Virus record (IMG/VR): IMGVR_UViG_3300033066_001283
Span: 86,264 to 150,263 of that record
Reading direction: 5' to 3' (one strand)
Source: a virus
Taxonomy: Duplodnaviria > Caudoviricetes
DNA: 64,000 nucleotides
Each line of letters opens with the position of its first letter. Position 1 is the first letter of the stretch. A program made the translations under genes and the position numbers. The notes under the pieces are model-generated. The model ran no database searches. It saw nothing but the letters and a program-made list of their open reading frames with translations, and was not told where the DNA came from. Below, piece by piece: positions 31,741-59,790 of the stretch.

Positions 31741-34700
31741 CTATTTAGAGACAATAGCCTTAAATACTTCTCCTAACTTAGCAAAAGCCTCTTTTAGAAT
31801 TGGTGAAAGGTGTGATGCTGACTCTACCCCACCAATCAATCTTCCTTCTACTGCTGCCATTCTTTCAGCGTAACCAGCTTGGTATCTTTCTAATCCAGCT
31901 GCAACTATTTTTCTACCATCAATCTCTTCACCACTATCTAGAAAGAGTTTTGCAGGATCCATTCCTGCAGCTACTGCTTCTAATAGTGTTTGACCCACAT
32001 GTTCTACCAGATTATTGACCATTCCTTCATCTAATCCTTGTTCTACCCACATTCTAGCCATCGGCCTTAACTGATCAATGATGGCTGTGCCTTGGTATCT
32101 TCTAATAACTGATTCTGTCTCTTCAGTAATAGCAGTTTCAGTAGAAGTTAATGATCTTCCTGCCTGAACATCCATCCAGAGTCTACTTTTATGCTTATAA
32201 TTAATTCCATCTTTACTAAACTCAAAAAGCTTTTCTTCACGGTGTGCAACCAACCGATTATAGTTCTCAGCAGAAGAATCTTTCATGTAAGCATTGAAAG
32301 CCTGTTTGGCTGATTCTGAAGTGCTTGCAATATCTGCTAAAACATCCATCAAGCCCTTATCTTTAGCTCCACCAATTCCTTGAAAGATAAGATTTTCACT
32401 TGATTCAAATGAGAAAGGTAATCCTTGATCTTTAATTGCACCATTAGTACTTAACCATTTACCTAATTCTTTAGTGAAAGAGTAATGTTCTCCCTCATAC
32501 TCTATTCCAGTTTCCGCTTTAGTGGGCATTTGAAGCGTTCTTCTATGCTTAGCCTCCCAAGATGAGGATACACCAGAAGAGACGCCTAGAAAGCCCTCTG
32601 AGGCGTCAAAAACCCTATTTACAGAAGACTCACCATAGTGTTTATAGATTGAACTGGCCAACTCTGGCTGAAAATCCTCCATATCTGTTAAAACTAATCT
32701 CGCTTTGACGAGTGGGCTATTAGTAAGCTGCTTCATAGTCTTCATAGTAGCACTCTGATTATTGATTGTTAAGTAGTCACCAATAAATGGTTTCTCACCA
32801 TGAAGGGTGCCTAATAATCCAATTCCAAACCTAAGTCCTTCCTTATCTAAATTTCGCATCATTAAGGTTCCAACTAGAACTTTATCTAAATCCTTATCAC
32901 TATTAAGCTCATTAACTGCCCCAAGTGCCAAACTAATGTTCTCATCCCCATAAACTCCATAATTTTGCTGAAGATCTAATAATCGGTAATGCCTAAAACG
33001 CATAACATTAGTCTCAGGTGTAATAGCTAATCCACCATCAATTTGGGCTACAACATCACTAATTCCTATTGCACCTATTGTTCGTTTTACTTCACCCATA
33101 GCCTCTCTATATACATAAGCTCTATCAGCATAGTCAGCCATACCCATAATGTATGCAATGTATTCCCGATCATTAGGATTCGCCTTTAATGTATTTCTTA
33201 GTGTGGCTGGATCAGTCCCCATAGCTGTAGCTGCTTTAATTAAAATATTATTGTGCTCGAAAATGTAACTAGCAGTAATATTTTCACTTTCACCAAACAA
33301 TCTATTTGACTCAAGACCGATGCCTTTCTTAGTGAATAATGAACCAATGATTTCTGGTAGGTACTGTTCCGGTTGATCTTCTACAACTTCCCCAAACTCA
33401 TTTAACCTTCTTCTAATTGGTAGGTAGATGCCGTGTTGTATATTTTTAAATTTTGCATTAGTTGCTTTTCCAGTAGGATCTCTGAAAGTAACTAATTTAC
33501 CTTCTACCCCGTCAATAGTGTGGAGCTCAAGGAAACTGAAACGCTCATTTATGTTCTTTCTAGTTTTAGTAAACTGTTTGTAGAATTCAAGTGCTCGTGC
33601 AGATGCTTCATGAACTGGGGTTCTAACATCTTTAGTATCCCCATAACTTCTTTTGAAAAACATCTCTTCTGGGCGGAAAGCTCCAATCAACTTTCTAGCA
33701 AGTTGTTCCCTTGGAAGAATAGCTTCGTTAGCAATAACAGCTGCCTGTACCTCTAATGGCATTTGCTCAAAATACTTTCGTTGGCTGGTGCTTTTACCAA
33801 ATACCTCATCTAATGCATAATCATGAGCAACCATAGCTTGTAGCTGATGGTACATGGGTGATGAAGCTGTTCCTTTCTGGTTAAGACCAAGATTTTCAAT
33901 AGCCATCGCCACAAGCCCTTTATCACGAAGTGGATCAAATAAAGCAAATGCCCCAGTTAAAGCATTATCATCCTCCATCAATTGTGCATACTTATCTGGG
34001 TTATCTCTTGCTAACCTGGCTAGAAAATCTTTGAAAGCAATTAAGTTGGTAACATTTACCTGGTTAGTTCCGAGGCCTACTACTGTATCTCTAGCTCCAA
34101 TCTCCCACATCTTTGTGAAAGCCTTAACCTGGTTCTCTTTAGTACTGGTAAAATAATATTCCAGATCTTTTGAAATACCTTTAAACACTGGGTGGTTAGG
34201 TCCAACCTCTTTTATTCCCCGAAGAATCTTGTGTGGATCTTGCTTATCATAGTGTATAACGTAGGTTAAGTTTGGTGAGTGTGCTGGGAACTTGGTAACA
34301 AATCCTCCAAGGCTAATATTACCATTACCCACCCTCTGCTTCATCTCTTCAGTTTTTCGCTGAAGCCATGCGTTAAAATTAGCTTCAAATGTTGTAACAG
34401 ATACTTGGTCACCATCAAAGTCACGGTAGAGTAGGTAAGAAGCTTTTGGGTTCATCATAACAACCTCTTGCCCTGTATTCTCATTCACCTGAATCCTAAT
34501 ATGTATCTCAGTTCCAGGTGGAATAGGAAGCTTCTCAGTATCGGCCCAGCTTCTTCCCCTCAGTTTTGGGTCCATAGGGAGCGTAGGATCCCAAAATAGC
34601 TTCATCATTCTAGTGTGAACATTATCAGCACCAAACGCTTTACTTAAAAAGTGTTTAACTGCAGCAGGACCTTCTATTCTACTTTGATCATTTCCTAGCT

Positions 34701-34950
34701 TTGTTAAATTCCTTCCAGCTATATTCCTTAACTGGGCTAGAATCGCAGTGTTATCATCAGCAGAATTAATTCCCGCCTTCAACTGTCTCCAAGCGAAGTC
34801 AAAGCCAGCTGCAAAAATCTCCCGTTGATTCTGAACAAAGGGTATTGCTTCAAATTCGCCCCTTATCTCATCAGCAGAAAATAATCTCCCTGAAGAATCT
34901 TTAAACCATGTATTAGGTTTAAATGTATACCTTCTAGCAATCCAGCTCAT
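31741..34950 (-). CDS. Putative single-subunit two-barrel RNA polymerase (candidate virion RNAP)
   Basis: MMNP...YRDFDGDQV (D177-D181, nt 34408-34422); VGLGTN; GKWLSTNGAIK (res. 830-840); colinear motif similarity to 42506..45082. Confidence 0.65.
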   Translation of the reverse strand: MSWIARRYTFKPNTWFKDSSGRLFSADEIRGEFEAIPFVQNQREIFAAGFDFAWRQLKAGINSADDNTAILAQLRNIAGRNLTKLGNDQSRIEGPAAVKHFLSKAFGADNVHTRMMKLFWDPTLPMDPKLRGRSWADTEKLPIPPGTEIHIRIQVNENTGQEVVMMNPKASYLLYRDFDGDQVSVTTFEANFNAWLQRKTEEMKQRVGNGNISLGGFVTKFPAHSPNLTYVIHYDKQDPHKILRGIKEVGPNHPVFKGISKDLEYYFTSTKENQVKAFTKMWEIGARDTVVGLGTNQVNVTNLIAFKDFLARLARDNPDKYAQLMEDDNALTGAFALFDPLRDKGLVAMAIENLGLNQKGTASSPMYHQLQAMVAHDYALDEVFGKSTSQRKYFEQMPLEVQAAVIANEAILPREQLARKLIGAFRPEEMFFKRSYGDTKDVRTPVHEASARALEFYKQFTKTRKNINERFSFLELHTIDGVEGKLVTFRDPTGKATNAKFKNIQHGIYLPIRRRLNEFGEVVEDQPEQYLPEIIGSLFTKKGIGLESNRLFGESENITASYIFEHNNILIKAATAMGTDPATLRNTLKANPNDREYIAYIMGMADYADRAYVYREAMGEVKRTIGAIGISDVVAQIDGGLAITPETNVMRFRHYRLLDLQQNYGVYGDENISLALGAVNELNSDKDLDKVLVGTLMMRNLDKEGLRFGIGLLGTLHGEKPFIGDYLTINNQSATMKTMKQLTNSPLVKARLVLTDMEDFQPELASSIYKHYGESSVNRVFDASEGFLGVSSGVSSSWEAKHRRTLQMPTKAETGIEYEGEHYSFTKELGKWLSTNGAIKDQGLPFSFESSENLIFQGIGGAKDKGLMDVLADIASTSESAKQAFNAYMKDSSAENYNRLVAHREEKLFEFSKDGINYKHKSRLWMDVQAGRSLTSTETAITEETESVIRRYQGTAIIDQLRPMARMWVEQGLDEGMVNNLVEHVGQTLLEAVAAGMDPAKLFLDSGEEIDGRKIVAAGLERYQAGYAERMAAVEGRLIGGVESASHLSPILKEAFAKLGEVFKAIVSK

Positions 34951-35091
34951 TAGTTAAAATAGAGGCAAAACTAATTCAAGTGTCAAAAATTAGAACACCC
35001 TTCCACCCCAATTAATTTCTCTGTTTCAGAAATAGGTACTGTCAAAATAATAATTTCCTAAAACTCAGAATTAGACCCACCCCCCATTGAA

Positions 35092-36102
35092 TTAATCCTT
35101 CTTAATACTCCAACCATAGTAAGTTGGAAACTTACCCTTCTTCAATTGATACAAGCCATTTCTTGGAATATTAAATTGTTTAGCTAACTGAGAGATATTA
35201 TTAGTTACATGCTCATTACCGTTGGGATCAATGAATGTGGGGTGTATTGTCTCTCCATTCTTTATTCTTACAGAGTTTTCAGCATTTATTTTCGCTATTC
35301 TTTCACTCTTTTCAGATGAGTAAATCTTTTCTTTTGCTGCTTTACGAGGTTTAGGTTGCCATATCTTTTCTCTTTCACCTGGAGGTAAAGAATATCCCTT
35401 GTAGGTTTTGCGCGTCCCATTAATAACTCTTCTTAGTCTTTTTTGCTCTAAATTATTCTCTTCACAAAATAAACTTAAATTTCTAACTGTAAAAGTGGTA
35501 TTCTGAAAACAAAGTTGATACTCTTTTGAGATTGGTTTATTTTCCCTGTATTCTCTGGAAATATTTTCTTTTTTATATTTCTCTCGACTCTTAATAACCT
35601 TATCAGAAATAGTATACCGTCTGCCGTAATCTTTACTTCTCTCTAAAGATTCTAATCTTTTAGCATTTCGATATTCAATCCTTTCAGAGTCACTCATACT
35701 AGATAGCTTCTTGCGTTTTTCTTGCCCTTCCTTAACCTTAGTACTAAATTCAGTTTCAGAAATTCTAATTTTATAATTAGGTAGTAGTCCTGGCTTTAGT
35801 AGTATATTATACATTTTGTCTTTAGTACATAGACTTAAGTAATATTCTTCTTTTTCGTTCAGCTGCTCAATCGAGCACTCCTCAATAATTCCCGGTTTAA
35901 AGTATTCTTTATCTTTATTCCATGCGTTCTGAAGATATGCATTAGAGTGTACCCCTTTCAATAAATCACATCTGTGATCTGTAAATCGTCTAGGTATATG
36001 TTTAGATTGTCCTATATACATTTTATCATTTAATGTGTTGTATAGACAATAGATGCCAGAAACATTTGGAACTTCCTTCCATTCGTATAATGAGATATTC
36101 AT
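35092..36102 (-). CDS. GIY-YIG homing endonuclease with C-terminal NUMOD-like repeats
   Basis: SGIYCLYNTLNDKMYIGQS..IPRRFTDH...HSNAYLQNAWNK...E..Y...YN. Confidence 0.9.
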   Translation of the reverse strand: MNISLYEWKEVPNVSGIYCLYNTLNDKMYIGQSKHIPRRFTDHRCDLLKGVHSNAYLQNAWNKDKEYFKPGIIEECSIEQLNEKEEYYLSLCTKDKMYNILLKPGLLPNYKIRISETEFSTKVKEGQEKRKKLSSMSDSERIEYRNAKRLESLERSKDYGRRYTISDKVIKSREKYKKENISREYRENKPISKEYQLCFQNTTFTVRNLSLFCEENNLEQKRLRRVINGTRKTYKGYSLPPGEREKIWQPKPRKAAKEKIYSSEKSERIAKINAENSVRIKNGETIHPTFIDPNGNEHVTNNISQLAKQFNIPRNGLYQLKKGKFPTYYGWSIKKD

Positions 36103-36275
36103 ATAAAAGAATGTAGATCATCCCCTAAAAATCAAGGCATGTCTGAGTTGGTAATAGACGGGGGCATAGTCGGAATTAGACCCACGAGGGTCGTTTTTAT
36201 GGGCAATCATGCCTATAGGGAATCATCCCAGTGATGCTGTGCTCAACAGCTTTTACCTTTGTAGGAGGTAATATC

Positions 36276-36614
36276 GTGTTTAAAATGACAGTAGCCACTA
36301 TGGCAGCGATCATTCTGCGTAGTAAGGACATGGCAAGTCCTTCCATCGCTCTCCGTTCAGGCGAGCTTGTCCTCATTGATGGAGATATCAATGACGAGAA
36401 CCTTCTCATCGTGGATGCGGTGGACACCTCGTTCTGGGAACAGTGGTTGCCCAGTAATATCCCGTTCCGACATACCTTTGGAACGTTCGAGTCTCAAATG
36501 AAGCGGTACGTGAGCCGCTTCAATCGAACTGGTGTAAAGAATGTCCTCATGGCATTGTCGTATCATGAGGTGCAGTTGAAGAGGAGGTATCCAGAAGAAC
36601 TGTTTAAAGACTGA
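36276..36614 (+). CDS. Early hypothetical protein
   Basis: Start revised to GTG 36276 after TGTAGGAGGTA RBS. Confidence 0.6.
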   Translation: MFKMTVATMAAIILRSKDMASPSIALRSGELVLIDGDINDENLLIVDAVDTSFWEQWLPSNIPFRHTFGTFESQMKRYVSRFNRTGVKNVLMALSYHEVQLKRRYPEELFKD

Positions 36615-36681
36615 GCCGAAAGCCAGGGATTTCTCCCTGGTTATACATAGGGTATGCTCCTATGTACTGATGAGGCAGCAC
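36615..36681 (+). ncRNA. Hammerhead ribozyme, type II (copy 1)
   Basis: GCC-GAAA-[GCCAGGGA tttc TCCCTGGT]-TA-[TACATAGG gtatgct CCTATGTA]-CTGATGA-GGC-AGCA. Full core, stems I-III, loop I TGCT complementary to 3' AGCA; predicted cleavage after A36643. Confidence 0.92.
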
Positions 36682-36718
36682 TCTCACAACGACCTTTACC
36701 TTTGTAGGAGGTAATATT

Positions 36719-37033
36719 ATGCTATTGACATTCACCATTCCATCTACTGGGCACATACGCTCAGTGGATCTGAGGGACGAGCTTGTGCATGAGTACAAGC
36801 TTTCAATCCAAGAGATGAGCAGGTACTTTAGCCCTGCTCTTGACAGACAGCGGAGGGCAGCACACAATAAGGTGGCTGCTTCTCTTGTCCCCATTCTCAA
36901 GGAAGAACTTCCTGAGGAGGATGATGCTTCTCTCACTCAAGAGGCCCGTAGGATAGTGACGGGTTTTTTAGAAGAATCCCTGACTGGCCGGAGTATGGTC
37001 AGGGAGCTCCTGGACTCCGGTTTACTGCGTTAG
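36719..37033 (+). CDS. Early hypothetical protein
   Basis: TGTAGGAGGTA RBS. Confidence 0.65.
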   Translation: MLLTFTIPSTGHIRSVDLRDELVHEYKLSIQEMSRYFSPALDRQRRAAHNKVAASLVPILKEELPEEDDASLTQEARRIVTGFLEESLTGRSMVRELLDSGLLR

Positions 37034-37040
37034 TTTGAGT

Positions 37041-37097
37041 ATTGCGGTGAACAGTGCCTAACTGTATGGTGTGTAAATCACCTATCTGTAGGAGGTA
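37041..37097 (+). ncRNA. Unidentified conserved intergenic structured motif B (copy 1)
   Basis: TGCGGTGAACAGTGCCTAACTGTATGGTGTGTAAATCACC, near-identical to copy 2. Confidence 0.6.
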
Positions 37098-37105
37098 AGT
37101 AAATC

Positions 37106-37372
37106 ATGCGTTCAATGAACAAAGGAAGTTGGGTGTATTTACCAACTCTTATCACTCTTTCGATGCTCCAGGAGCAGAAGGACAGACACTACACCTTCCA
37201 CCCAGAGGTCTTCTTCGAGGACCTCAATCCTGGGTGGACTGAGCAGGTTCTCGGGTTCATGGCGAAGAACCCAACGTGCTCGATGAGCATCGATGCACGG
37301 TATCATCAGGACAGCTACTCTGATGGGGAAACCCTTAGAGGAGAAGGCATGGTGTATTGTCAGACTAGATAA
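37106..37372 (+). CDS. Early hypothetical protein
   Basis: TGTAGGAGGTA RBS. Confidence 0.65.
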   Translation: MRSMNKGSWVYLPTLITLSMLQEQKDRHYTFHPEVFFEDLNPGWTEQVLGFMAKNPTCSMSIDARYHQDSYSDGETLRGEGMVYCQTR

Positions 37373-37440
37373 TGCCGAAAGCCAGGGATTTCTCCCTGGT
37401 TATACATAGGGTATGCTCCTATGTACTGATGAGGCAGCAC
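37373..37440 (+). ncRNA. Hammerhead ribozyme, type II (copy 2)
   Basis: Core identical to copy 1, stem II TGCC/GGCA; begins immediately after stop codon; predicted cleavage after A37402. Confidence 0.92.
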
Positions 37441-37474
37441 TCTCACAACGTTTGTTACCGTAGGAGGTAATATA

Positions 37475-37636
37475 GTGAATAGAAGAACAAAACTCATCAT
37501 CGTTAGTGCTATCATAGTAGCACTATGCCTGCTGGATGCAGCAGGTGTCTGCATCACTGACCCTCGCTTTGAGGCGGGGAAGCAGGATAGGGCTCAAGCA
37601 GCCCGCATTCTTGAGGAAGCAAGCACAACACATTGA
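37475..37636 (+). CDS. Small membrane-anchored early protein (53 aa, not in ORF track)
   Basis: GTAGGAGGTA RBS then GTG; MNRRTKLIIVSAIIVALCLLDAAGVCITDPRFEAGKQDRAQAARILEEASTTH. Confidence 0.6.
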   Translation: MNRRTKLIIVSAIIVALCLLDAAGVCITDPRFEAGKQDRAQAARILEEASTTH

Positions 37637-37640
37637 TTGC

Positions 37641-37695
37641 TTGTGGTGAACAGTGCCTAACTGCATGGTGTGTAAATCACCTAATTGTAGGAGTA
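37641..37695 (+). ncRNA. Motif B (copy 2)
   Basis: TGTGGTGAACAGTGCCTAACTGCATGGTGTGTAAATCACC. Confidence 0.6.
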
Positions 37696-37700
37696 ATAAA

Positions 37701-38144
37701 ATGAAAACATTAGTAGTAGCAGTGTGGGCGTGGCTTTCGGCCAAGTACCAAGGTCTTGTCTATGGCAGGACTGAGAAGTGTGAGTGGTGCGGGGAGCCGT
37801 GCGTTCCCAACGCTCACCATATGTGTGTGCACTGCCTTGAACAGGAGTTTGGCACTCCTGAAGACTGGCAGGCAGAGTGGGAAGAGGACTCGCTTCGACA
37901 GAAGATCGAGGACGTTCTGGATCCTGAAGAGTTGGAGCATTCTAATACTCAGGATCAAGGAGAGGGATGGGGAGTCCACACCTGCTGCAAGTGTGGTGGA
38001 AAGACTCATCCTGATGGTCCTGCATCTGTGTGGGATCCTTTCACCGATGAGACTTGGTGTGAGGATTGCTGGTATAAGGAGAATCCTCCCAGCGAACAGC
38101 TCATAAAGAGTCTGCCGAAGTGTGAGGTAGACTTCGAAGACTAA
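37701..38144 (+). CDS. Early Cys-rich (Zn-binding) acidic protein
   Basis: Start revised to ATG 37701 after TGTAGGAG; CEWC, CVHC, CCKC, CEDC pairs. Confidence 0.6.
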   Translation: MKTLVVAVWAWLSAKYQGLVYGRTEKCEWCGEPCVPNAHHMCVHCLEQEFGTPEDWQAEWEEDSLRQKIEDVLDPEELEHSNTQDQGEGWGVHTCCKCGGKTHPDGPASVWDPFTDETWCEDCWYKENPPSEQLIKSLPKCEVDFED

Positions 38145-38148
38145 TGAG

Positions 38149-38202
38149 TATATGGTGGACGTGCCTAACGTAGCAGAAGGATTATCTGCATTTGTAGGAG
38201 TA
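38149..38202 (+). ncRNA. Motif B (divergent copy 3)
   Basis: TATGGTGGACGTGCCTAACGTA then GCAGA-7nt-TCTGC hairpin, then TTTGTAGGAG. Confidence 0.5.
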
Positions 38203-38210
38203 GTAAGAAC

Positions 38211-39569
38211 ATGAAACTGTTAAGTTTAGAACAAGTGTGGAAGATGCGGACGAAGCATCAGTTGGAGTGGTTGAACTCAATCCCTGACCTGAAGACGAAG
38301 AAGTGTCAGCGTGTTGTTGTAAGAGGAAACAAGACGATTTCAATCGTCGTGACCATGGGATTCCGAGATTCGGAATCAAAGGTCCGTCTATTCAAGATCG
38401 AACACAGATTTAAGATTGATGGTACCTACCTTGGCTCGTACTTTGAAGGAATAGATCCTTCTGCCTTCACGCGTCAGGTTCTGAGGCTGGTGAGATTATC
38501 ACTCCCAGGGTTGCACTCAAAAGTGCAACATGGGTATGTTATGGATAAACTCTGCCACCCATTCGATCTAGCGGATTTTTCCAAGGAAATTGGTATCAGC
38601 GCCTGCCCGTGGGGTGTTAAGACCGTTCTGCTGTGGCAGGATCTTGGATTCTATACTAGGTATAGTGTCAATGATCTCTACCTTCCAGTTAAACATGGAT
38701 TGTTACGCAATCTAAAACGAGAAGATCATGGAGGATTAGAGTACATGATGCGAAAGGGAGGCAAGTATATTCGCTCCCTAGGAAAACAAGGAAGTATTAT
38801 GGTATGGAGAGCTGTAACAGCAATGGATGCTGCTAGAATCTCTCCCGGCCTCCCCTTCCGAGTGGCCACAATGTGGTTAACTGTAGTAAGCCATAGACGG
38901 AACGAAGAATCTCTCCCAATATGGGCAAGGTTTATCTTCCTTCACTGGGAGCAGAACTACAGAGCCATTCTTCGTAGAACGAAGAATGCAGCTGGAGTGC
39001 ATCGCTCACGAGATATAGATGCAGTGCTCAATGATCTGTATGATTACTTGGGTGCACATTACGAAGAAGCTCTACCAGATGCTGCATTCGAGGTCTTGTT
39101 CCAAAGATCAGAAGCGTGGCATCGCGTGTTAAGAGAGAATCGGCGTGCTCTTAATGATATAGACTATGGTCCAAATCTTGAGAAGGACACTGCTCTTCCT
39201 TGGAATGGATTGGAAGGAACATTCTCTATTGGCGAATTCGAGTTTACTCGAATTACAACGTATGGAGATCTCTTGGATGAGGGCGACATTATGCGGCATT
39301 GTGTAGCTACATATGTCAGGTATTGTCTAACAGGCAATACATCCATTTGGAGTATGAGACTCAAGGTACTAAAGGGCAAGAAATGTATGCGTGTTGCCAC
39401 ACTTGAAGTAGCGCATGCAGGAGTGTCTGAGTTGCGACAGGCTCGAACTGCCTGTAATGGCTCACTAAACGACGAACAAAGAGCCGCAACCAGAGCCTTT
39501 GTATCCTGGCTTAACAATCAACCACTTAGTGTGGGTGAGAGACTTAGAGCATTGAATGAGGTAAACTAA
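38211..39569 (+). CDS. PcfJ-like domain protein
   Basis: C-terminal S..WH ... LLDEGDIMRHCVATY ... SIWSMR ... ATLEV ... Q....N pattern typical of PcfJ family. Confidence 0.7.
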   Translation: MKLLSLEQVWKMRTKHQLEWLNSIPDLKTKKCQRVVVRGNKTISIVVTMGFRDSESKVRLFKIEHRFKIDGTYLGSYFEGIDPSAFTRQVLRLVRLSLPGLHSKVQHGYVMDKLCHPFDLADFSKEIGISACPWGVKTVLLWQDLGFYTRYSVNDLYLPVKHGLLRNLKREDHGGLEYMMRKGGKYIRSLGKQGSIMVWRAVTAMDAARISPGLPFRVATMWLTVVSHRRNEESLPIWARFIFLHWEQNYRAILRRTKNAAGVHRSRDIDAVLNDLYDYLGAHYEEALPDAAFEVLFQRSEAWHRVLRENRRALNDIDYGPNLEKDTALPWNGLEGTFSIGEFEFTRITTYGDLLDEGDIMRHCVATYVRYCLTGNTSIWSMRLKVLKGKKCMRVATLEVAHAGVSELRQARTACNGSLNDEQRAATRAFVSWLNNQPLSVGERLRALNEVN

Positions 39570-39898
39570 TGAACAAGAATAAGAAGCTCCAGATGGAGCG
39601 GATCATCGCTGAGGTACGAGCAAACAAAGTGCTCGTTATTGATGTCAAGGACTTTGAAGCCTATCGAGGTGTTGTCCGCCTTGGTACCCTCAAGGCGAGG
39701 GAAGCAAAGAGGGAGTGGAAAGCTCCCAAGTTGATTGTCAAAGCTCAGACAGCTGATCCTGAAGTTCTCAGGAAGTTGGCTGACAGAGGAGCTAGCAGAA
39801 TTATCTGCTCAGTTCCCAAGAACAAGAAACGAGAGATCATCCAGTCTCTCGTCAAGAACCCTGCACGATGTTGGGTGCAGGTAATGGAGGTAAAATAA
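39569..39898 (+). CDS. Basic hypothetical protein
   Basis: GAGG RBS, translationally coupled. Confidence 0.55.
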   Translation: MNKNKKLQMERIIAEVRANKVLVIDVKDFEAYRGVVRLGTLKAREAKREWKAPKLIVKAQTADPEVLRKLADRGASRIICSVPKNKKREIIQSLVKNPARCWVQVMEVK

Positions 39899-40164
39899 TG
39901 CCACTACTCATTCAAGTGTTCAGGAAGGGGCAGAATGAGCCCCTTGCCTTGCAGGATGTTGATATGGAGGTGAGAAATCACTTCCAATATCACAAGGACC
40001 AAGAGACAAAGTTTATTTGTAGTTGGCCCTCAACTCTCACATATAGGCTTGCATTCAAGCCTATGGATGAGGTACTATCTGATCTAAGAGCAGACGGATT
40101 AGTCACAGTCGCTGAGGTATGTGAGTATATCAGCGATAATTATGACATCAGAGTATGGAGGTAA
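39898..40164 (+). CDS. Hypothetical protein
   Basis: Start revised to ATG 39898 after GGAGG. Confidence 0.55.
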   Translation: MPLLIQVFRKGQNEPLALQDVDMEVRNHFQYHKDQETKFICSWPSTLTYRLAFKPMDEVLSDLRADGLVTVAEVCEYISDNYDIRVWR

Positions 40165-40167
40165 ATC

Positions 40168-40485
40168 ATGTGGAAATTGATCAGGATTGAGCTAGGTAGT
40201 CGAAAGACTGTCCTGCTCAAGAAGCAGTTCGCTACTGAGAGAGATGCTCAGAAGCATGCCAATCGACTCAATGGTATGTATGCCCATCGCTATGGTGATG
40301 GGTTCTACCATGTACAACTCCTATCCCCTTCTCAGTGGAGAGAGCCACAAGTGGTGAAGACCAAGTGGTTCATCGGAGATAAGACAGGGCAGATAATCGC
40401 CTCATTTGATCAGGAAGAGAAAGCTACCCAGTTCTTAGATGATAACTGGGAACAGGACTGGACCAAATGGCAGGGCCCAGCCTAG
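40168..40485 (+). CDS. Hypothetical protein
   Basis: GGAGG RBS. Confidence 0.55.
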   Translation: MWKLIRIELGSRKTVLLKKQFATERDAQKHANRLNGMYAHRYGDGFYHVQLLSPSQWREPQVVKTKWFIGDKTGQIIASFDQEEKATQFLDDNWEQDWTKWQGPA

Positions 40486-40586
40486 CATCACTGTTCTATT
40501 CCCCTACTGGATTAGCCTCCGGTAGGGGAACGCCTGCCGTGGATTGCCGCCTAGGTGGTGATACCAAGTTGTAGGAGATTACAAAT

Positions 40587-40826
40587 ATGAAACAGCCTAT
40601 CGTAATTACAGCAGAGCGCAAAGCCGAACTGAAGAGGATTGTCAAGCGGGCAATCGAGACCGGAGCTACGAGCTTCACCGTGAACAGCCCAGCAGAATGG
40701 ACGTTCTGCGTGCGTGCTATCCAACACGAGCGGTCTAAGGGGCAGTACATCCCCAATAAGCAGATCCTTACCCGGACACAGCTCCGGGATGACGCGCTCG
40801 AAGACTTCGATTACAATCCAAGCTAG
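40587..40826 (+). CDS. Early hypothetical protein
   Basis: TTGTAGGAG RBS. Confidence 0.55.
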   Translation: MKQPIVITAERKAELKRIVKRAIETGATSFTVNSPAEWTFCVRAIQHERSKGQYIPNKQILTRTQLRDDALEDFDYNPS

Positions 40827-40998
40827 TGCGTGTTCGGGGCCAACCTAACGGTTGGCCCCCCTTTTCTTGTGGCCTAACAAACCTCCGGTAGACTGCCTGT
40901 TTGGTAGTTTTGGGGCTAATTACGCTCTTGTGTGGTGTTGCCACATTGGGCACGGCCTGAGGTTTGGGGTGTTAGTGCCCCCATTGTAGGAAGGTAAT

Positions 40999-41346
40999 AT
41001 GCTGAAAATTATCAAGAATCGACGTGTGCGTACAGCACCAGTGACCAAGCCCGTAAAGCTTACCACTACAGACGAGTTTGATGCTCTAATGAGCAGACTT
41101 GAGGAGCTTTCTAAGCAACTTGTTATGCCTGCTTCCCCGAAGAACCTCACTCCTGAAGATATCAGGGAAGGGACTAAGAAGATGATGATCGGAACTCTGT
41201 TCATTACAGAGATGGAAGGCAATACGCAGGAAGAGCAGATTGCCATGTTCATCAGAATTCGCTCTCAGCTAGTTCCGTATGAGCTTGACTGGTTCAGGCT
41301 CGGAGCTGAGGCGATCATGGAATACAGACGGCTATGTTCGGCCTAG
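40999..41346 (+). CDS. Early hypothetical protein
   Basis: TTGTAGGAAGGTA RBS. Confidence 0.55.
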   Translation: MLKIIKNRRVRTAPVTKPVKLTTTDEFDALMSRLEELSKQLVMPASPKNLTPEDIREGTKKMMIGTLFITEMEGNTQEEQIAMFIRIRSQLVPYELDWFRLGAEAIMEYRRLCSA

Positions 41347-41531
41347 GACGACCTGTAGACAGACGTGGAGAGTATTCACGTCCACTGACAATCAAAGAAT
41401 GTGAAGAACTGATGGCATTCTTTGAGTTGGCTCTACAGCAAACTGGCATGCCACAGTTCTGGTATGCCCTTGCCAAGAAGAAGAGGGATGAGGTTATAGA
41501 GGCCTACTCCCACTTAATGGAGGCACAATGA
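41334..41531 (+). CDS. Hypothetical protein
   Basis: Overlapping operon ORF. Confidence 0.45.
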   Translation: MFGLGRPVDRRGEYSRPLTIKECEELMAFFELALQQTGMPQFWYALAKKKRDEVIEAYSHLMEAQ

Positions 41532-41893
41532 GTAGTGCAAGTCTACGAAAGACCATTAAAGAGCAGGGAACTATCTCTGTCTCTGAACTAGCGAAGGCTC
41601 AGCTTGAGAAGTTCAACGCTGAGCGAATCGGCTACATAAGGGCCGCTAAAGAGGTCCTTAAGAAAGACAGGTATTCTGAGATTTCTCAGAATGTTGAAGT
41701 AACAGTCGATGGCGAAGGACTGTTGCTAACTTTGAAGGTTCGCCCACAACCAGTCACAGAGGCTCTCATAAGAGAGATCTATGATACAATTCGAAGTGCA
41801 CAAGCAGCTGCTGATGCGGCTGCTGATGAGGGCTTAATGGAAAGAGTCCTTGACGAAAACAAGAAAATCATAGGAGCAATAAATGGCGAGTAA
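41528..41893 (+). CDS. Hypothetical protein
   Basis: GGAGG RBS. Confidence 0.55.
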   Translation: MSSASLRKTIKEQGTISVSELAKAQLEKFNAERIGYIRAAKEVLKKDRYSEISQNVEVTVDGEGLLLTLKVRPQPVTEALIREIYDTIRSAQAAADAAADEGLMERVLDENKKIIGAINGE

Positions 41894-42359
41894 ATTCATC
41901 AACCCTTCGACACTCTGGCAGAAAAAGCTGAAGAATTGCAGCACTGCTGATCAAGATGCAGCTCAGGAGATCCTCAGTGAAATCCACAGCAAGCCCCTTA
42001 CCATGCAGAAATGGGGCGATGGATCTCCACTCTTCTTCAGAAATGGCTCTACCAGCTCAAAGCATCGAGTACCATCGGTGCCAGTTCGTTACCTGATCGA
42101 AACTGGATTGGCCGGTGTTACCATCGACAATCACGTGGTGCCACTCGAGAAACCAATCGAGTACGAAACACCCGGCGTAACCAAGCCTACGACTCAACAG
42201 GAATCTTCCGTTGGAAGAGTCATCAATCTGTCTACGCAAGAAAGACAGTTCATTGAGCTATTACGAATCTTGCCATCGCACGTCAAGAAGGAGATCACGG
42301 AATACGCTAACACCGAAGCCCGCGCCTTCATGAAGGAGATTAACAGTCTATTGTGCTGA
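41883..42359 (+). CDS. Hypothetical protein
   Basis: AGGAG RBS. Confidence 0.55.
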   Translation: MASKFINPSTLWQKKLKNCSTADQDAAQEILSEIHSKPLTMQKWGDGSPLFFRNGSTSSKHRVPSVPVRYLIETGLAGVTIDNHVVPLEKPIEYETPGVTKPTTQQESSVGRVINLSTQERQFIELLRILPSHVKKEITEYANTEARAFMKEINSLLC

Positions 42360-42505
42360 GAATGGTCGGTATGACAATCTACATCATCGCGTGTGTAATC
42401 CTCGGATTCATCTGCGCGATATTATTCATCGAGCCCCTGATCAATAAGTATCAGGAGCACAAAGCAGCAAAAGCCTAAGACACTACTGTAGGAGGTAGTA
42501 AAATC

Positions 42506-45082
42506 ATGAAATTCAAATTCACGAAGAAGGTAGATCCTTCATTTGAGTACTTTGACTGGAACGGAATTAAGGTTCCGTACAGTACAAACCAGAAGCTGGT
42601 ATTGGACGGTAAGGAGACAGTTCCTGATAAGCCACATATTAGCTACCTGAAACGTGGCAACATCCAAGCAGCCTGCGTTAGCATGGCTCGTGAAGCCCTT
42701 ATCCTATTGATGGGGGAAATGACATTTCAAGTAAGAGGATGGGATGCTCCAACAGCAGTCTCAGCCTCAGTTCCAGAAGGAGCCATTTATCTTGACAAGC
42801 GTGGCGTTCCAGTAGTCAATGAAGACTGGGGCGATCAGCACGCACTTGATGCTGATGGAGATAGGTGCTCCATCCATCGGCATAAGGATAATCCAGGACA
42901 AGCTGTACTGGTGAAATATCCTGTTACCAGCACCCCAATCACTGGTCTTATCTCCAAAGATGGCATCTTGGAGAAATTCACTGGCCTTACAGTGGAAGAT
43001 AGTCAGAAGCTGATATCTCAGTACAATACTTCAGGTGAAGTGTATGGAATTCCAGGTGATGGAATCAGTGTCGAGTTCGGCAAGAATACTCCTTATCAAG
43101 AGGAGAAGTTCTTCCTGAAGGGGCATACACCAGCACCGGTAGGCCTACTCACCAATGGCTGGAATACTTACGAGCTAGATAAAGCTCAAGCCAAGCGTGG
43201 ATGGTCTAGGAAGATTGACAGCATGTTCAATAACTATCAGAGATATGAAGATATTGAACTGGGCGGTCTGAAGGCTGCGCGTAAGGATGAAGCATCACTA
43301 GCAGACAGTGACATCACTAAGCTTGATTATGCCCTTGCATATCAGCATGCTTGGGCATTGACTGGCACAGGTAGACTTGCAGGTTTAAGTGAGCAGGCTC
43401 TTGAATGGTTCCCAGCTCTTGATGAGAAGGGCCTTAAGCAGGTGCTTACTGACATCAGCAAACTGAATGTGGATTTCAGGAAGAGAGAAGAGAATGATTT
43501 CGAGCGTCGTAAACCTACGCTACGAACATCTCCATTCCTGAAGAAGCTTTTGCCTGCCAGGTACTACTATAAGGGCAAGCTGATTGAGAACCCAGATCAT
43601 ATAACTAAAGGTGGACTGATAAAGTTCTATGAACTAAAGGCTATGCCTGGAGCTCCATCTGCAGTGGTAATCTGGCTTCAGAGACCAGAAGGCATCCCAG
43701 TTGCTCTTACGGACGTGAAACGTAAGGATCACGATCCAGAAGGCTTAGGCTTTGCATACGTTCTTTATCCTGTCTGGGATAACAGAGAACTCTACAGCAA
43801 TGACAAGACTGGCGATCAAAGTCTAATGGTCAGTGCCAAATCATGCTGGGTGCATCCTATCGACCATCTCGAGAAGTGCCTACGTCAGTTCGACAATAAG
43901 GTGATCAATCCTGAAAATGGCGTAGTAGTTTCAAGATTCCCTGAATCCTGGGAAGAGTGGAACTGGCCAAGCAGAGCAGGCAAGATCAAGAGACTGCAGA
44001 AGTTCCTCACTGACTATTGTGGCGAGTATGGTGACGTAGTAAACTGCACCATGCGTAATCGACGTCCTGAGCTACTTGAGCATAATGTCAAGTTCGCAAG
44101 AGCTTCAGCAGTGATCGATTATGGTGGAATAGAACTTACACCAGAGCAAATGTGGAAGATTGCATCTAAAGCGTCTTCTAAGCTACGACTCTGCTTAGGT
44201 GGCAATAAGCAGACCAAGAGTCACGTCAGGAAATACTGTATTGCTGATGAATCTGGTACACCTGCATGGGGAGCGTTTAAGACTAAATGCCATCCAGCTA
44301 GGCAGGGAAAGCAAAGAGCACAGCTTGTGCATGCACTGAAGGAAGTGAGAATGCGTGTGGCAATTGTCAACTGCAACACTCTCACTCAATGCTTCATCAC
44401 ACCCTCTGGTATTGAGAAACAAACCACATCATCAGGATTCCTGCCAATGTGTCTCAACTCACTAGGAGACGCTCAAGCATATCTGGACAGTCTCACTGAT
44501 CTGGAGAAGGCTAATATGCCTGATAACTTCTTGAAGGGAACCGAGTTTACAACTTGGACTGGACAGAAGGTAACAGTCTGGGTAGTAAATCCCAGAAATA
44601 CCGTTCAGGTAGGTAAGCTGATCTCAACACGAGCAGAGAAGTTCGTACCAAGAGTGATTGGGCCTGTAGTTGACCTTGATGAGTTCAATGCCAACATGGA
44701 GAATGAGCAGATCGATTTGGTCATTCCAGTCACTGAACTGATCAATAAGGGTGCACATACCAATATGCTTGAGAAGTGCACCGAACATATGATTCACTTC
44801 AAGTCATATGTGTCTGAAGATCTCACTCAGCTAGGTGATATCACCATTCCAGCAATGGTTGGAGAATTCATCTACTTCAGAAGTGGTGCTCACTCAGAGA
44901 ATACACCACCACGATGGCGAACATGCCGATACAAAGGAATTGATGGGCATGTAATCATTCGACAAATTGAAAAGCTCTATGGCAAAGAATGGGAACAAGA
45001 AGTGAACATTCTTCCTGCACTTGAGCTTCTTGACTCAATGAAGAAGATCATGAAACGTTGTGGCATCAAATTCAACCGCTAG
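42506..45082 (+). CDS. Putative single-subunit two-barrel RNA polymerase (candidate non-virion RNAP)
   Basis: HALDADGDRC (D115-D119, nt 42848-42862); VGLLTN; beta-like GKLISTRAEK (K704..K712, same spacing as GDKxxxRHGNKG), IDLVIP, PAMVGEFIY. Confidence 0.7.
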   Translation: MKFKFTKKVDPSFEYFDWNGIKVPYSTNQKLVLDGKETVPDKPHISYLKRGNIQAACVSMAREALILLMGEMTFQVRGWDAPTAVSASVPEGAIYLDKRGVPVVNEDWGDQHALDADGDRCSIHRHKDNPGQAVLVKYPVTSTPITGLISKDGILEKFTGLTVEDSQKLISQYNTSGEVYGIPGDGISVEFGKNTPYQEEKFFLKGHTPAPVGLLTNGWNTYELDKAQAKRGWSRKIDSMFNNYQRYEDIELGGLKAARKDEASLADSDITKLDYALAYQHAWALTGTGRLAGLSEQALEWFPALDEKGLKQVLTDISKLNVDFRKREENDFERRKPTLRTSPFLKKLLPARYYYKGKLIENPDHITKGGLIKFYELKAMPGAPSAVVIWLQRPEGIPVALTDVKRKDHDPEGLGFAYVLYPVWDNRELYSNDKTGDQSLMVSAKSCWVHPIDHLEKCLRQFDNKVINPENGVVVSRFPESWEEWNWPSRAGKIKRLQKFLTDYCGEYGDVVNCTMRNRRPELLEHNVKFARASAVIDYGGIELTPEQMWKIASKASSKLRLCLGGNKQTKSHVRKYCIADESGTPAWGAFKTKCHPARQGKQRAQLVHALKEVRMRVAIVNCNTLTQCFITPSGIEKQTTSSGFLPMCLNSLGDAQAYLDSLTDLEKANMPDNFLKGTEFTTWTGQKVTVWVVNPRNTVQVGKLISTRAEKFVPRVIGPVVDLDEFNANMENEQIDLVIPVTELINKGAHTNMLEKCTEHMIHFKSYVSEDLTQLGDITIPAMVGEFIYFRSGAHSENTPPRWRTCRYKGIDGHVIIRQIEKLYGKEWEQEVNILPALELLDSMKKIMKRCGIKFNR

Positions 45083-45182
45083 GGTTTTGTGGTTGTTTTT
45101 GGGCTCTTGTGAGCTATGTCCAATGTTTTAGTGATGAGGTTTGGGGGTAACCCCGTTAACAACAATTAGGAAACACAACATC

Positions 45183-45992
45183 ATGTCATTCAGAGAACAA
45201 TTGAAGCAGACAACTCAGATCAAGCCTGAGGTCATAGACCTCGGTATCGATCACGACGTACTTGCTACTTCTGGAAGCACACCACTTGCAGTAGCAGTCA
45301 TTCCTCTCAAGCAGAAATTCGAAGGGAAAGTCTTTGAGTATTCTACCCCTATTAAAGGGGGCGGATCTCAACGGATTCCCTACGAAGTCTGGGCCGCCAA
45401 GTTCATCGCCCTTAAAAGCCGGTCTACTAAGATGGGCGAAAAGGGCGAACCCACAACTCTCGTATACGTTGGATTCCTTGGGAAGCCAATCAAGCGAGAC
45501 GACAAAACTGGGGAACCGCTGAAGGATAAAGATGGCAAGTTCATCTATGACGACCATGACATCCCGGAAGAGATGTGCATGGAAATCGATGGTGACCTTC
45601 TTCCAAATCTATGCGAGTTTAGACTTGCATGGGGCGTCAACTTCCAAAAGAGCGCAACCAAGCGGCTTAGTGTGCCAGAGATCAAGATCGGCATGAGCAG
45701 AAATGTTCCAGCCGACCGCAAATCTGGAGACAAAGGACAAACCTATCTTAACGAAGATTGGGACGTAATCCCATTCGGTCGTGGATTGCTCCATTGGGCA
45801 CACAATCACTTGCTAGTTGGTATGGAAGATGGGAATCAGACCCTGACAACTATCTACAATTCCATTCCACAGGAAGAAGTGCGTGACAAGAATGCTGAGG
45901 GCGACTCCGTAGCTGGCGATATCATTGATCCCGAAAAGGTCAATGAGGCCGCAGACGCAGCTGAGCCAGTCGGAGTGTCAGTCGACGAGTAA
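45183..45992 (+). CDS. Hypothetical protein, possible ssDNA-binding protein
   Basis: Beta-rich, acidic C-terminal tail; follows RNAP-like gene; start revised to ATG 45183. Confidence 0.35.
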   Translation: MSFREQLKQTTQIKPEVIDLGIDHDVLATSGSTPLAVAVIPLKQKFEGKVFEYSTPIKGGGSQRIPYEVWAAKFIALKSRSTKMGEKGEPTTLVYVGFLGKPIKRDDKTGEPLKDKDGKFIYDDHDIPEEMCMEIDGDLLPNLCEFRLAWGVNFQKSATKRLSVPEIKIGMSRNVPADRKSGDKGQTYLNEDWDVIPFGRGLLHWAHNHLLVGMEDGNQTLTTIYNSIPQEEVRDKNAEGDSVAGDIIDPEKVNEAADAAEPVGVSVDE

Positions 45993-46430
45993 GTGAAGAG
46001 GAATGGGGAAGTTCGAAAGGGCTCTCCCAAGCATCAGCAACTCAAACAGCAAACGAAACAGATGCACAAAACGATACCGGTCTAGGATAGGTATCGGGGA
46101 AGGGAAGTGTCTAGGATACAACCCTTCCCAAAAAATTTCTTATCGCTCGAAATCTAATTGCTAGGCAATGAAATTAAGAGTGATGAGGAATGGGAGTACA
46201 GCAAGTGGATGCTCGAAAGACCGTCTGACTTGTGTCTTACTCTCTTACTTTTGCCTGTACAGAGTCGAAGGAGAAATCCGGAGCAAAACAGGCCTGGAAG
46301 CCATCAGAGAAAGCAGGTTAACATAGATCTAGGCGGAGAGACCCCGCTAGGGCAGCAATGCCCTAAAGACGACCACGTGCGTCCCAGGATCCTTAAGATT
46401 TTTACCCCGTCCAACACAAGCAGAGCCATA

Positions 46431-46456
46431 GGGGAGCAATACGCTCCCCACTTTTT
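46431..46456 (+). terminator. Intrinsic terminator
   Basis: GGGGAGC aatac GCTCCCC a CTTTTT. Confidence 0.7.
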
Positions 46457-46459
46457 CGA

Positions 46460-46550
46460 TTTCTACCTTCACTACCTCCTACAACAGTGACACGGTAGGG
46501 GGTCAGGCAACTGGCCCCAACCAATTTCAGGGTGCAATCCCACCTATCGT
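46460..46550 (+). ncRNA. Candidate small RNA presenting an anti-RBS loop
   Basis: TCACT-ACCTCCTACAAC-AGTGA hairpin, then GGGGTCAG gcaa CTGGCCCC and GGG tgcaat CCC. Confidence 0.55.
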
Positions 46551-47048
46551 AGATCCTCTCCCCAAAAGAAGAAACACGCACCCTGATTCAATTTCCGGCC
46601 AGCAATGGACGGAGAGTACTCTAACAGGAAATCCCTGGTATGAACTGTTAGAAGAATAATATCAGGGCAAAGGACCCATGTGATAGAGACCTTGTGGTGA
46701 TGAAATGGGATTAAACCACAAACTTGGCCAAGGTTGAATGGTCTTAACAAGATGCTAAGTCAACAATACGCTCTTGGGATTTAATGTTGATTTCCAACAC
46801 AGCCTGCTGCACTGCAAAGTGTCTCAGGTCCTTGCGGAAGCAGGAACATATGCAAACTCACACTGTGAACTGAGTAAGCGGGCTTCTCTTTTGCGTCGAG
46901 CGAGAGGAAGCTGACTCAACATAGTTGAAGAAGCGAGATGACTAAATCACAGGCTTAAGATCGGTATCCTTTCGGGATGCTTTAGTCAAGAAGAAGTGAC
47001 GAATTATTCTGTCTGAGCGAAGAATCAACTGATGGTTGCGGGATCTAC
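46549..47048 (+). ncRNA. Candidate ~500-nt structured non-coding RNA
   Basis: Closing helix GTAGATCC/GGATCTAC, many nested stems, crossing helices, no credible ORF. Confidence 0.5.
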
Positions 47049-47348
47049 CCTATTTAAATCTCGAATCATTTTTGGCGCCAATACGCCCTTAGTCTGGAAA
47101 TCTGAGGGATCAATCAAACTGGTAATTTCCAACTACTAGGAGTACACAGAATGGTGTGTACTCAGCGCCATCAGAGCAATTGCCGAAGCTCTGGAGTTGA
47201 ACATACGTAATACATGTGCATGTCTAAATACAGGTATGTACTGGGTAGTCAAACCGAGAAAATATTGAGAGGCGTTTTAACCAATAACGTAGTTTCAGTC
47301 ATGACTGAAACTGGATGTGTTCAACTTACCCTATTTCCAATCAAAGCC

Positions 47349-48101
47349 ATGAAACTAATACTTGCCAGTATAATGATCGTTTCTGTTGCCCACGCAAATT
47401 CCTTTGGGAAAATCATGTGCGTAGGTGACTCACTAACTGCAGGTGGTGCTAATCCACCAGCATATAGACAGGAGCTGTTCAATTTACTGACAAGCGGGTT
47501 AGATACTTTCCAATTCGTTGGCCCAAATGACTGGGGCTACTTTGGATCAGTACATGCTAACATTCATGCAGGTTTCGGTGGATGGAGTAGTTACCAATTG
47601 TGTAATGGTAACACATTATCTCCTTCTTCTGGTAAATTATCTGATTGGTTGAGTTTCGCTCCCAATACAGTAATACTCATGTGTGGTACCAATGATTACT
47701 GGGATAATTATTCCGGCATTGGCTACTGGGATACAGTTTCACAGAATAACCTTTGGAATAACATGGTTCCAAGGTACACAAATCTACTGAATCAAGTATT
47801 CAGTAGCGGTGCTTCGCTTGTCGTCTTTGTTGCTCCACCAAAGTATCTTGCTGATAATTATGGGCCGAGATATGAGTATCTCCATCAATTATCAGTAGTT
47901 GTAAAGAGTGTTTATACGACATTCTATCAACAACGTAAGAACATCAAGTTCGTTGATCTATGGTCAGTAGCATCTGATCAACTTGGAGTCGACCTAGGTT
48001 CTGATAACATTCACTGGAACAATAATGGTGCTAAGAAAGCAGCAACATGTATTTATGGTGGGATGAAAAGAACATTAGGGATGAGGATAGAGACACAATG
48101 A
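47349..48101 (+). CDS. Secreted SGNH/GDSL hydrolase (esterase)
   Basis: Signal peptide MKLILASIMIVSVAHA, GDSLT, MCGTND, DNIHWN; start revised to 47349. Confidence 0.85.
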   Translation: MKLILASIMIVSVAHANSFGKIMCVGDSLTAGGANPPAYRQELFNLLTSGLDTFQFVGPNDWGYFGSVHANIHAGFGGWSSYQLCNGNTLSPSSGKLSDWLSFAPNTVILMCGTNDYWDNYSGIGYWDTVSQNNLWNNMVPRYTNLLNQVFSSGASLVVFVAPPKYLADNYGPRYEYLHQLSVVVKSVYTTFYQQRKNIKFVDLWSVASDQLGVDLGSDNIHWNNNGAKKAATCIYGGMKRTLGMRIETQ

Positions 48102-48283
48102 TTATCTACTCAGTTATTTCCTTTTGCATCTTTATTCTTATCCATCTCTGGGAAGTGGATAATAATGAAGACTATGGAAACGCACAAGTGGCACTACTCT
48201 TCATTTTCGCTCTCCTCTGGCCCTTTATAGTCATCTCAGCAATACTAGGCTGGTATAAAACCAAGAAAGAAGCCCTAATTTAG
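48098..48283 (+). CDS. Small two-TM membrane protein
   Basis: Hydrophobic helices, ALLWPF motif; start revised to the in-frame ATG. Confidence 0.45.
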   Translation: MIIYSVISFCIFILIHLWEVDNNEDYGNAQVALLFIFALLWPFIVISAILGWYKTKKEALI

Positions 48284-48298
48284 ACTCATGACAATTTT

Positions 48299-48394
48299 GG
48301 CAGTACCACCAGGGAGTTTGGCAGGCCTGGCTCCGCCTCATAAGCGGTTTCGATTTATTCGACGTTATTGGTTCGATTCCAATTGCTGCCACCA
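48299..48394 (+). tRNA. Atypical tRNA with CAU anticodon (Met/Ile2-like), 96 nt
   Basis: Acceptor GGCAGTA/TGCTGCC-A-CCA, anticodon arm CCGC-CTCATAA-GCGG, T arm ATTGG-TTCGATT-CCAAT; enlarged D arm and long variable arm. Confidence 0.75.
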
Positions 48395-48470
48395 AAGATT
48401 GCACCATTGCCTTACCCCCTACGGGTTGGGATAGATATCCTTTGGTGCAATACAATTTGTGGTGAATCTA

Positions 48471-48872
48471 ATGAGCACAACACGCAGAGAAATCCTTAAA
48501 GCAGCACCACTTGCTCTTCTTAGTGGTGGTTTCGCCATTCCCCTTCTATCAGCCTTCACTGAAGATGATTTGAAGAAAGCTGAGAAAGGAAAGGTGATTA
48601 AGCAAGAAGCCAAAGCCGTTAAGGTGCATCCAAGCCTCCACAAATATTCACCATCCGAAGCATTTGTTTGGCCATATCCGACAGAACCTATTCTTACCCT
48701 AGGTCCTGCCTTTCTCAATGAGCTTCCATGTGAAATTATTGGCCTACATCTCTTCAGCCCGGTGACCGTGGCCAAGCAGCCAAAACATAGTAGTTACTAT
48801 TTGTTGAGATTTCAATCTATTATCCAAATAGATAATACTCATCAGACGTTCATCCTGTCACAAACAATTTAA
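48471..48872 (+). CDS. Protein with twin-arginine (Tat)-like signal
   Basis: MSTTRREILKAAPLALLSGG. Confidence 0.5.
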   Translation: MSTTRREILKAAPLALLSGGFAIPLLSAFTEDDLKKAEKGKVIKQEAKAVKVHPSLHKYSPSEAFVWPYPTEPILTLGPAFLNELPCEIIGLHLFSPVTVAKQPKHSSYYLLRFQSIIQIDNTHQTFILSQTI

Positions 48873-48876
48873 TTTT

Positions 48877-48952
48877 CCCCCGGTAGCTCAGTGAATAGAG
48901 CGGGTGGTTTCTACCCACTAGGTCAGGGGTTTGAGTCCCTTCTGGGGGGCCA
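48877..48952 (+). tRNA. tRNA-Arg(UCU)
   Basis: Cloverleaf CCCCCGG/CTGGGGG, anticodon loop TT-TCT-AC, encoded CCA. Confidence 0.88.
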
Positions 48953-49169
48953 AAATGTTCAAGTTGAACGCTACTCTGAGGCATCAGAAGTGCTAGGCTT
49001 GATCTACTCCACAACAATAGAGAACTGGTTGTGGCTCAAAGTATAAACATGGAACATCGGGTTTGATTATGGTTGCAACCGTAATCAAGCTGCAGACGCA
49101 TCATATAGACCAGTATACTGGGTATGATGTCTTAGTCTGACTAATCAATTTTCTACATTGAGGGTATCT

Positions 49170-49445
49170 ATGAAGAAACTTACCAATTCAATCATGCTCG
49201 GCAGTGTAATGCTGATGGGCTTTCTAGTTACTAGCATTGCGATGCCGATCCAATCAGTGGTCAGCTATCCAAAATGCTGTCAAGACCAGCCAATGGGGGC
49301 AAGATGCTCTGATGCAAAATTCAAAGCAGCATGCTACCGAGCCTGCCAGAAGGGTTGTGGCGACCCTGATGGATTACCAGGAAAGAAATGCCGATTGGAT
49401 TGTGACCGATACTTCGGCAATGTGTCAACAGGAGGAACGATGTGA
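49170..49445 (+). CDS. Secreted Cys-rich small protein
   Basis: Signal peptide then 8 Cys. Confidence 0.5.
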   Translation: MKKLTNSIMLGSVMLMGFLVTSIAMPIQSVVSYPKCCQDQPMGARCSDAKFKAACYRACQKGCGDPDGLPGKKCRLDCDRYFGNVSTGGTM

Positions 49446-50164: not shown

Positions 50165-50166
50165 AT

Positions 50167-51375: not shown

Positions 51376-51413
51376 TTATTACGCCACGACCGCACCATCT
51401 CTAGGAGACAAAA

Positions 51414-59789: not shown

Positions 59790-59790
59790 G

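Follow-up and report, generated by a model that had tools for sequence, protein, structure and literature searches.

The window analysed here is a stretch of 64,000 nucleotides (64 kb) that forms the right-hand part of the 150,263-bp IMG/VR virus record IMGVR_UViG_3300033066_001283, which comes from an uncultured, contractile-tailed phage and has an estimated completeness of 80%. Two of its open reading frames (ORFs), P0001 (1069 aa; positions 31741..34950, minus strand) and P0002 (858 aa; 42506..45082, plus strand), probably encode cell-type RNA polymerases (RNAPs) that each consist of one chain, with a beta' module at the N-terminus, a condensed beta module at the C-terminus and, plausibly, a virion/non-virion division of roles between the two. 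The evidence consists of the fold match of the C-terminal part of P0002, conserved motifs, synteny and the homology between the two families. The original prediction had described both genes as paralogous single-chain RNAPs of apparently permuted architecture. Both ORFs were confirmed at these coordinates and strands, and the motifs that it quoted are found at the residues it gave for them (DFDGD at 177 and GKW..K at 830 of P0001; DADGD at 115, GKL..K at 703, IDLVIP at 736 and MVGEFIY at 784 of P0002).

The family of P0002 has 19 homologues of 817-921 aa with 31-67% identity, and in all 19 both modules lie within one ORF. Residues 1-340 (42506..43525, +) are assigned to the beta'-like module by invariant columns, by the order of DSSP elements and by an hhalign comparison with a syntenic DxDGD family described below. 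This part contains a strand-helix-DxDGD-strand unit followed by a helical region with invariant R246, I250, E251, K256 and K260. The DADGD motif at residues 115-119 (42848..42862, +), a putative Mg-binding Asp triad, is invariant in 19 of 19 aligned homologues. Residues 343-801 (43532..44908, +) are assigned by structure searches to a condensed beta/Rpb2-like module. Its residues 611-800 (44336..44905, +) correspond to a predicted beta-type double-psi beta-barrel (DPBB), as indicated by DPBB structural alignments and by invariant residues. With homologues at about 33% identity, the invariant columns include D115, D117, G118, D119, K704, K712, D737, R792, G794, S797, E798 and N799. K704 and K712 (codons 44615-44617 and 44639-44641, +) fall inside the beta-type barrel and have the same K-x7-K spacing as K1065/K1073 of E. 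coli beta; D737 follows K704 by 33 residues, the corresponding distance in E. coli beta being 30.

The AlphaFold2 (AF2) model of P0002 calculated from the family alignment was confident, with a predicted local distance difference test (pLDDT) of 81.5 and a predicted template modelling score (pTM) of 0.80. In three structure searches the top matches to residues 345-801 were all RNAP beta/Rpb2 chains. Foldseek matches in the PDB were nearly all second-largest RNAP subunits, with weak E-values of 0.01-0.1, and the BFVD search returned viral RNAP beta-type subunits. The C-terminal part of P0002 aligns to whole RNAP beta chains, from their N-terminal regions through the barrel, and generic and designed DPBB structures align to residues 611-799. 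Because the structure searches agree on beta/Rpb2 chains, the C-terminal 460 residues, as modelled, are a condensed whole beta subunit with the beta-type barrel last. Alternatively, the two proteins could be two-barrel polymerases that do some job other than gene transcription, for instance priming, synthesis on RNA templates or, like PolD, the making of DNA. The superfamily does include RNA-dependent and DNA polymerases (e.g. PolD), and no DNA polymerase or primase was found among the proteins scanned, the record being about 80% complete. However, the alignment extends over whole RNAP beta chains and not merely over the barrel, and the best structural matches of P0002 are phage and cellular DNA-dependent RNAPs, so that we consider such other jobs quite improbable.

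The N-terminal barrel of P0002 was assigned solely from the DxDGD motif and the order of secondary-structure elements. According to DSSP of the AF2 model, strands 13-18 and 21-26, a long helix 53-72, strands 74-82, 93-96 and 102-104 and a helix 106-111 come before the metal loop 115-119, and strand 120-125 comes after it. This modelled order fits a double-psi barrel in which the metal loop precedes the last strand. No QDE-1, gp66, P23-45 or PolD chain was among the best 50 matches of the structure searches with P0002, which is uninformative, since no more than one barrel can be fitted by a sequential aligner if the order is reversed. One candidate relative was rejected: the 798-aa protein of Acinetobacter phage ME3 (KU935715; 224453-226849, -) is the best BFVD match (E 3e-3 over 637 columns with P0002) but has neither DxDxD nor profile similarity. 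A 358-aa ORF of ME3 (222114-223190, -), 1.3 kb downstream of the 798-aa gene, has DVDGD at residue 59. These two might be a split relative, but no sequence similarity was detectable.

The paralogy of P0001 and P0002, which had been proposed from shared motifs, is supported through an intermediate family. Compared directly, the two proteins have no BLASTP similarity (best E 0.4), and their family profiles give a marginal hhalign match (score 32.3, E 0.007-0.011; 30 column shuffles gave at most 28.2). G001 and G002, two IMG/VR records in which P0002 has homologues, are colinear with this genome across the whole structural region, with 25-55% protein identity. HMMER with the P0001 profile found nothing in them, and the positional orthologues surfaced only on an ORF scan: the slot of P0001 is filled by DxDGD proteins of 1095 and 1121 aa, respectively, which are homologous to each other (E 3e-50). 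BLASTP matched P0001 to the slot protein of G002 at E 5e-7 over residues 10-181, and hhalign matched the P0001 family to the slot family at E 1.3e-5 over residues 503-714, with a colinear N-terminal match in addition. The slot family also matched the P0002 family, at E 9e-5 around P0002 86-155, through two colinear matches with scores of 49.5 and 36.4, compared to shuffle maxima (n=40) of 27.6 and 22.6. When the P0001 family was merged to 8 sequences, it gave one match to the P0002 family with a probability of 93%, E 3e-7 and 558 columns, spanning P0002 93-758 and P0001 152-866. Because the slot-family profile matches are colinear and above shuffles, P0001 and P0002 are, judging from their sequences, distant paralogues with a common overall layout. 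If the two proteins were unrelated and shared their motifs by chance, the absence of BLASTP similarity and the marginal direct profile comparison would be expected, but the colinear matches through the syntenic family lie far above the shuffles, and P0001-type and P0002-type genes co-occur in four related phage genomes. G001, G002 and a 251-kb contig each have a P0001-slot DxDGD protein (~1100 aa) together with a P0002 homologue, and the pair is divergently arranged in the 251-kb contig. We therefore give chance resemblance hardly any weight and regard it as effectively refuted by the slot-family comparisons.

In order to relate P0001 to cellular beta', its merged family was aligned by hhalign with a beta' profile of 80 gammaproteobacterial loci. 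The score was 40.1 (E 6e-4), with P0001 164-319 placed onto beta' 447-585; with E. coli beta' as the only target it was 33.5, and shuffles reached at most 24.7. When the N-termini of both families were pooled into one profile, the comparison with beta' reached just E 0.002 over 26 columns. The beta'-like segment, residues 123-321 (33988..34584, -), includes a Pro-containing strand at 143-155, N167-P168, DFDGDQ at 177-182 and SP-x10-QD at 225-238. The Pro-containing strand matches the RAPTLH..GIQ strand that precedes the metal loop in beta'. N167 and P168 are 10 and 9 residues ahead of the first Asp, as are H and P in beta', and S225-P226 to Q237-D238 has the exact SP-x10-QD spacing of beta'/Rpb1. 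DFDGD itself (residues 177-181; 34408..34422, -) is invariant in the 4 close homologues, and the syntenic proteins have DFDGD or DQDGD. The original prediction had placed the R/K-x-P strand after DxDGD and proposed a circularly permuted family; a permutation inside the barrel was not supported. The KFP motif of P0001 is, by this alignment, an ordinary beta' segment after the barrel (KFP..SP leading into the canonical SP-x10-QD) and not a displaced R-x-P strand. Since the Pro strand precedes DxDGD and SP-x10-QD follows it, both with canonical spacing, sequence comparison indicates that the barrels are not internally permuted and that the order of the modules alone is swapped. The reversed module order stood for P0002, in which DxDGD is near the N-terminus and the K-x7-K beta-type barrel is C-terminal, opposite to gp66, QDE-1 and P23-45 gp64.

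Both hhalign and the merged alignment pair residues ~700-940 of P0001 (32131..32853, -) colinearly with the part of P0002 that holds the beta-like barrel. The placement of the catalytic lysines in P0001 is insecure. Both motifs of the proposed pairing GKWLSTNGAIK/GKLISTRAEK are present, but the register is uncertain, and the spacing to the following conserved acidic position (D-x-x-x) favours K811 over K831. It could be argued that P0002 alone is active and that P0001 is a diverged derivative, with the acidic loop retained but a new function, perhaps that of a structural protein or an ejected pilot. For P0001, modelling gave nothing usable and the K-x7-K pair could not be aligned securely. It is the fastest-evolving large syntenic gene, with a BLAST match to its positional orthologue in the N-terminal part only and with neighbours at 25-55% identity. 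It also shares the absence of Cys with structural proteins: P0001 and six relatives (1060-1121 residues) have 0 Cys and members of the P0002 family have 11-16, Cys is also missing from several of the phage's structural proteins, and the early block has a mean of 1.5% Cys. On the other hand, DxDGD, the N at -10 and SP-x10-QD have been kept over subfamilies of about 25% identity or less, and therefore the catalytic site has apparently been kept. We consider the loss of polymerase function in P0001 unlikely, and two active polymerases remain our preferred explanation.

Several observations weigh against two polymerases with divided roles. At the level of HMMER, neither P0001 nor P0002 resembled any RNAP. 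In the wide structure search, beta' chains aligned with the C-terminal barrel of P0002 and not with the N-terminal one. One IMG/VR relative of P0002 (in G001) has DADAD instead of DADGD. Modelling, which had been proposed as a check on both proteins, supported a beta-like C-terminal part in P0002 but failed for P0001, for which the AF2 model from 4 sequences had a pLDDT of 34.7 and was unusable. A second beta-type lysine of P0001 is not evident in the merged alignment. With respect to the division of roles, the structural block and the P0001-like gene of G001 are on opposite strands, and a naive k-mer search upstream of early or late genes gave no shared phage promoter motif.

Database searches beyond the related genomes were mostly negative. 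Pfam and PHROG scans had no match for P0001, P0002 or any of the 19 P0002 homologues, and neither family was annotated in the libraries searched. Neither single sequences nor a profile matched anything in the PDB by sequence, and 50,697 phage records gave nothing in blastn and tblastn. P0001 has 3 close homologues; an exhaustive profile search of its family against 1.84 billion representatives returned only its own cluster, and an IMG/VR scan for its relatives found nothing. Because Pfam, PHROGs and PDB sequence searches do not detect the family, phages with it are at present listed as lacking a polymerase of their own. Pfam and library scans recognised no RNAP family elsewhere in the 150-kb record, and there was no third DxDGD ORF. 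The pattern D.DGD is present in 2 of the 172 ORFs (48,165 aa) of the whole 150-kb genome, namely P0001 and P0002.

The mechanism that we infer concerns catalysis, template and product, the juxtaposition of the barrels, timing and packaging. The N-terminal beta'-like module would provide the barrel with the DxDGD Mg-binding loop, the condensed C-terminal beta-like module would end in the two-lysine barrel, and the active site would be at the junction of the two barrels. For P0002, D115, D117 and D119 would hold the metal ions, and K704 and K712 would touch the RNA 3' end and the incoming nucleoside triphosphate. The phage would then probably transcribe its own genes. In favour of this reading, sigma-70-like sites were not enriched around the early block, and the record has no other recognisable RNAP family.

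The genome setting is consistent with different times of expression. A myovirus-type structural block occupies the minus strand of the window from 1 to about 31.7 kb. It includes the terminase (25920-28274), the portal (22580-24190), the major head protein (16991-18280) and, in the tail region, a tandem paralogue pair of sheath-like proteins (10750-12465 and 13351-14763), all on the minus strand. Among the large genes of this block P0001 comes first, and P0002 lies 6 kb inside the divergent plus-strand block, where its neighbours are mostly small, unknown and early-type. Because it stands at the front of the structural block and lacks Cys, P0001 is probably a late product, which may enter the virion and be injected to start transcription. 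P0002, encoded among small plus-strand genes, is probably the non-virion enzyme. The division into a virion (P0001) and a non-virion (P0002) polymerase is plausible, and the setting provides a hint of it. The 283-aa gene downstream of P0002 was considered but is not claimed as a partner subunit; four relatives have a neighbour of the same size, and clear sequence conservation is absent.

Other features of the region were also noted. A homing endonuclease gene (35092-36102, -) with GIY-YIG/HNH-type PHROG hits separates P0001 from the divergent early block; it has homologues at the equivalent position in G001 (9232-10257) and adjoining the P0001 homologue in contig L134. An 818-aa protein at L124:12892-15348 (-) (G000 62892-65348) carries an intein with LAGLIDADG endonuclease and SEC-C motif, and the terminase homologues in L133 and L134 have Intein_splicing matches. 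Mobile elements are frequent among these related phages. The early block also encodes a 452-aa protein (38211-39569, +) with a PcfJ-like domain at its C-terminus, and upstream of the P0002 homologue there is a (weak) PcfJ gene in L001 and YpsA-family genes in L094-L096. L001, L094, L095 and L096 are four independent assemblies, and each of them stops 5-7 kb upstream of its P0002 homologue; L134 begins just upstream of the P0001 homologue. These repeated contig ends in the divergent region suggest that assemblies repeatedly break there or that the genome has a terminus there. G+C is 44-48% in the plus-strand early-type block (36000-54000), 35-42% in the structural block (1-36000) and 32-36% at the right end (54000-64000), so that there is a sharp compositional step between blocks inside one phage genome. 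The tail region contains a further tandem paralogue pair (8923-9894 and 9903-10739, -), both matching PHROG 9206, whose label is major head protein, as well as giant ORFs of 3178, 2710 and 1473 aa (window 2-6835, -, and upstream, G000 68406-93098), all kept in G001 and G002 with 23-32% identity.

With somewhat less assurance than for the two proteins themselves, we lean towards a wider interpretation: a clade of 150-250 kb contractile-tailed phages has an undescribed miniature beta'-beta RNAP lineage, which was duplicated into a fast-evolving Cys-free enzyme, probably virion-delivered, and an intracellular enzyme of 820-980 residues. Two-barrel RNAPs are central to ideas on the origin of transcription. 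If the proposal is true, the existence of this reversed order in a natural family would mean that the connection between the barrels is topologically free, and the phages would be independent of the host RNA polymerase. P0002-like proteins would be among the smallest enzymes that keep the entire beta-like scaffold, and at 858 residues P0002 would be a minimal model for structural work. It would also be a further independent case of a phage with paired virion and non-virion polymerases.

As in YonO, gp66, P23-45 gp64/gp96 and QDE-1, both barrels are on one polypeptide. In the literature consulted, the beta-type barrel comes first in each of the one-chain forms. In phi14:2 gp66, which is virion-packaged, and in QDE-1 the connector between the barrels precedes DxDxD, the order being beta-type barrel, connector and DxDxD barrel; in the P23-45 polymerase the connector runs from DPBB-B to DPBB-A. 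The YonO-like ORF of Bacillus phage 0305phi8-36, which is among the nearest cultured relatives by terminase, has DxDGD at residue 601 of 1246. P0002 differs from the YonO, gp66 and QDE-1 type of single chain in having DxDGD first (115-119) and the beta-type barrel last (611-800), and the order beta-type barrel, connector, DxDxD barrel is not found in it. Its beta-like part additionally aligns with entire beta chains, beyond the barrel. A paralogous pair of virion and non-virion polymerases is known from P23-45. The jumbo phages phiKZ and AR9 (PDB 7OGP, 7S00) also have virion and non-virion enzymes, but their RNAPs split beta and beta' over four or five polypeptides, whereas here there is no such split and a single chain of 858 or 1069 residues has beta' ahead of beta. 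Compared to E. coli RpoC and RpoB, the total size is about one third of beta plus beta', and the modules are fused in reverse order with no HMMER-detectable similarity. A limited literature search found no description of a single chain ordered beta' then beta. Membership in the two-barrel superfamily is indicated by the DxDxD-triad barrel, with DxDGD invariant in both families and the P0001 family matching beta', and for P0002 by the second, beta-type barrel with two basic residues. Compared with the one-chain enzymes known so far, the difference lies in the order of the two modules.
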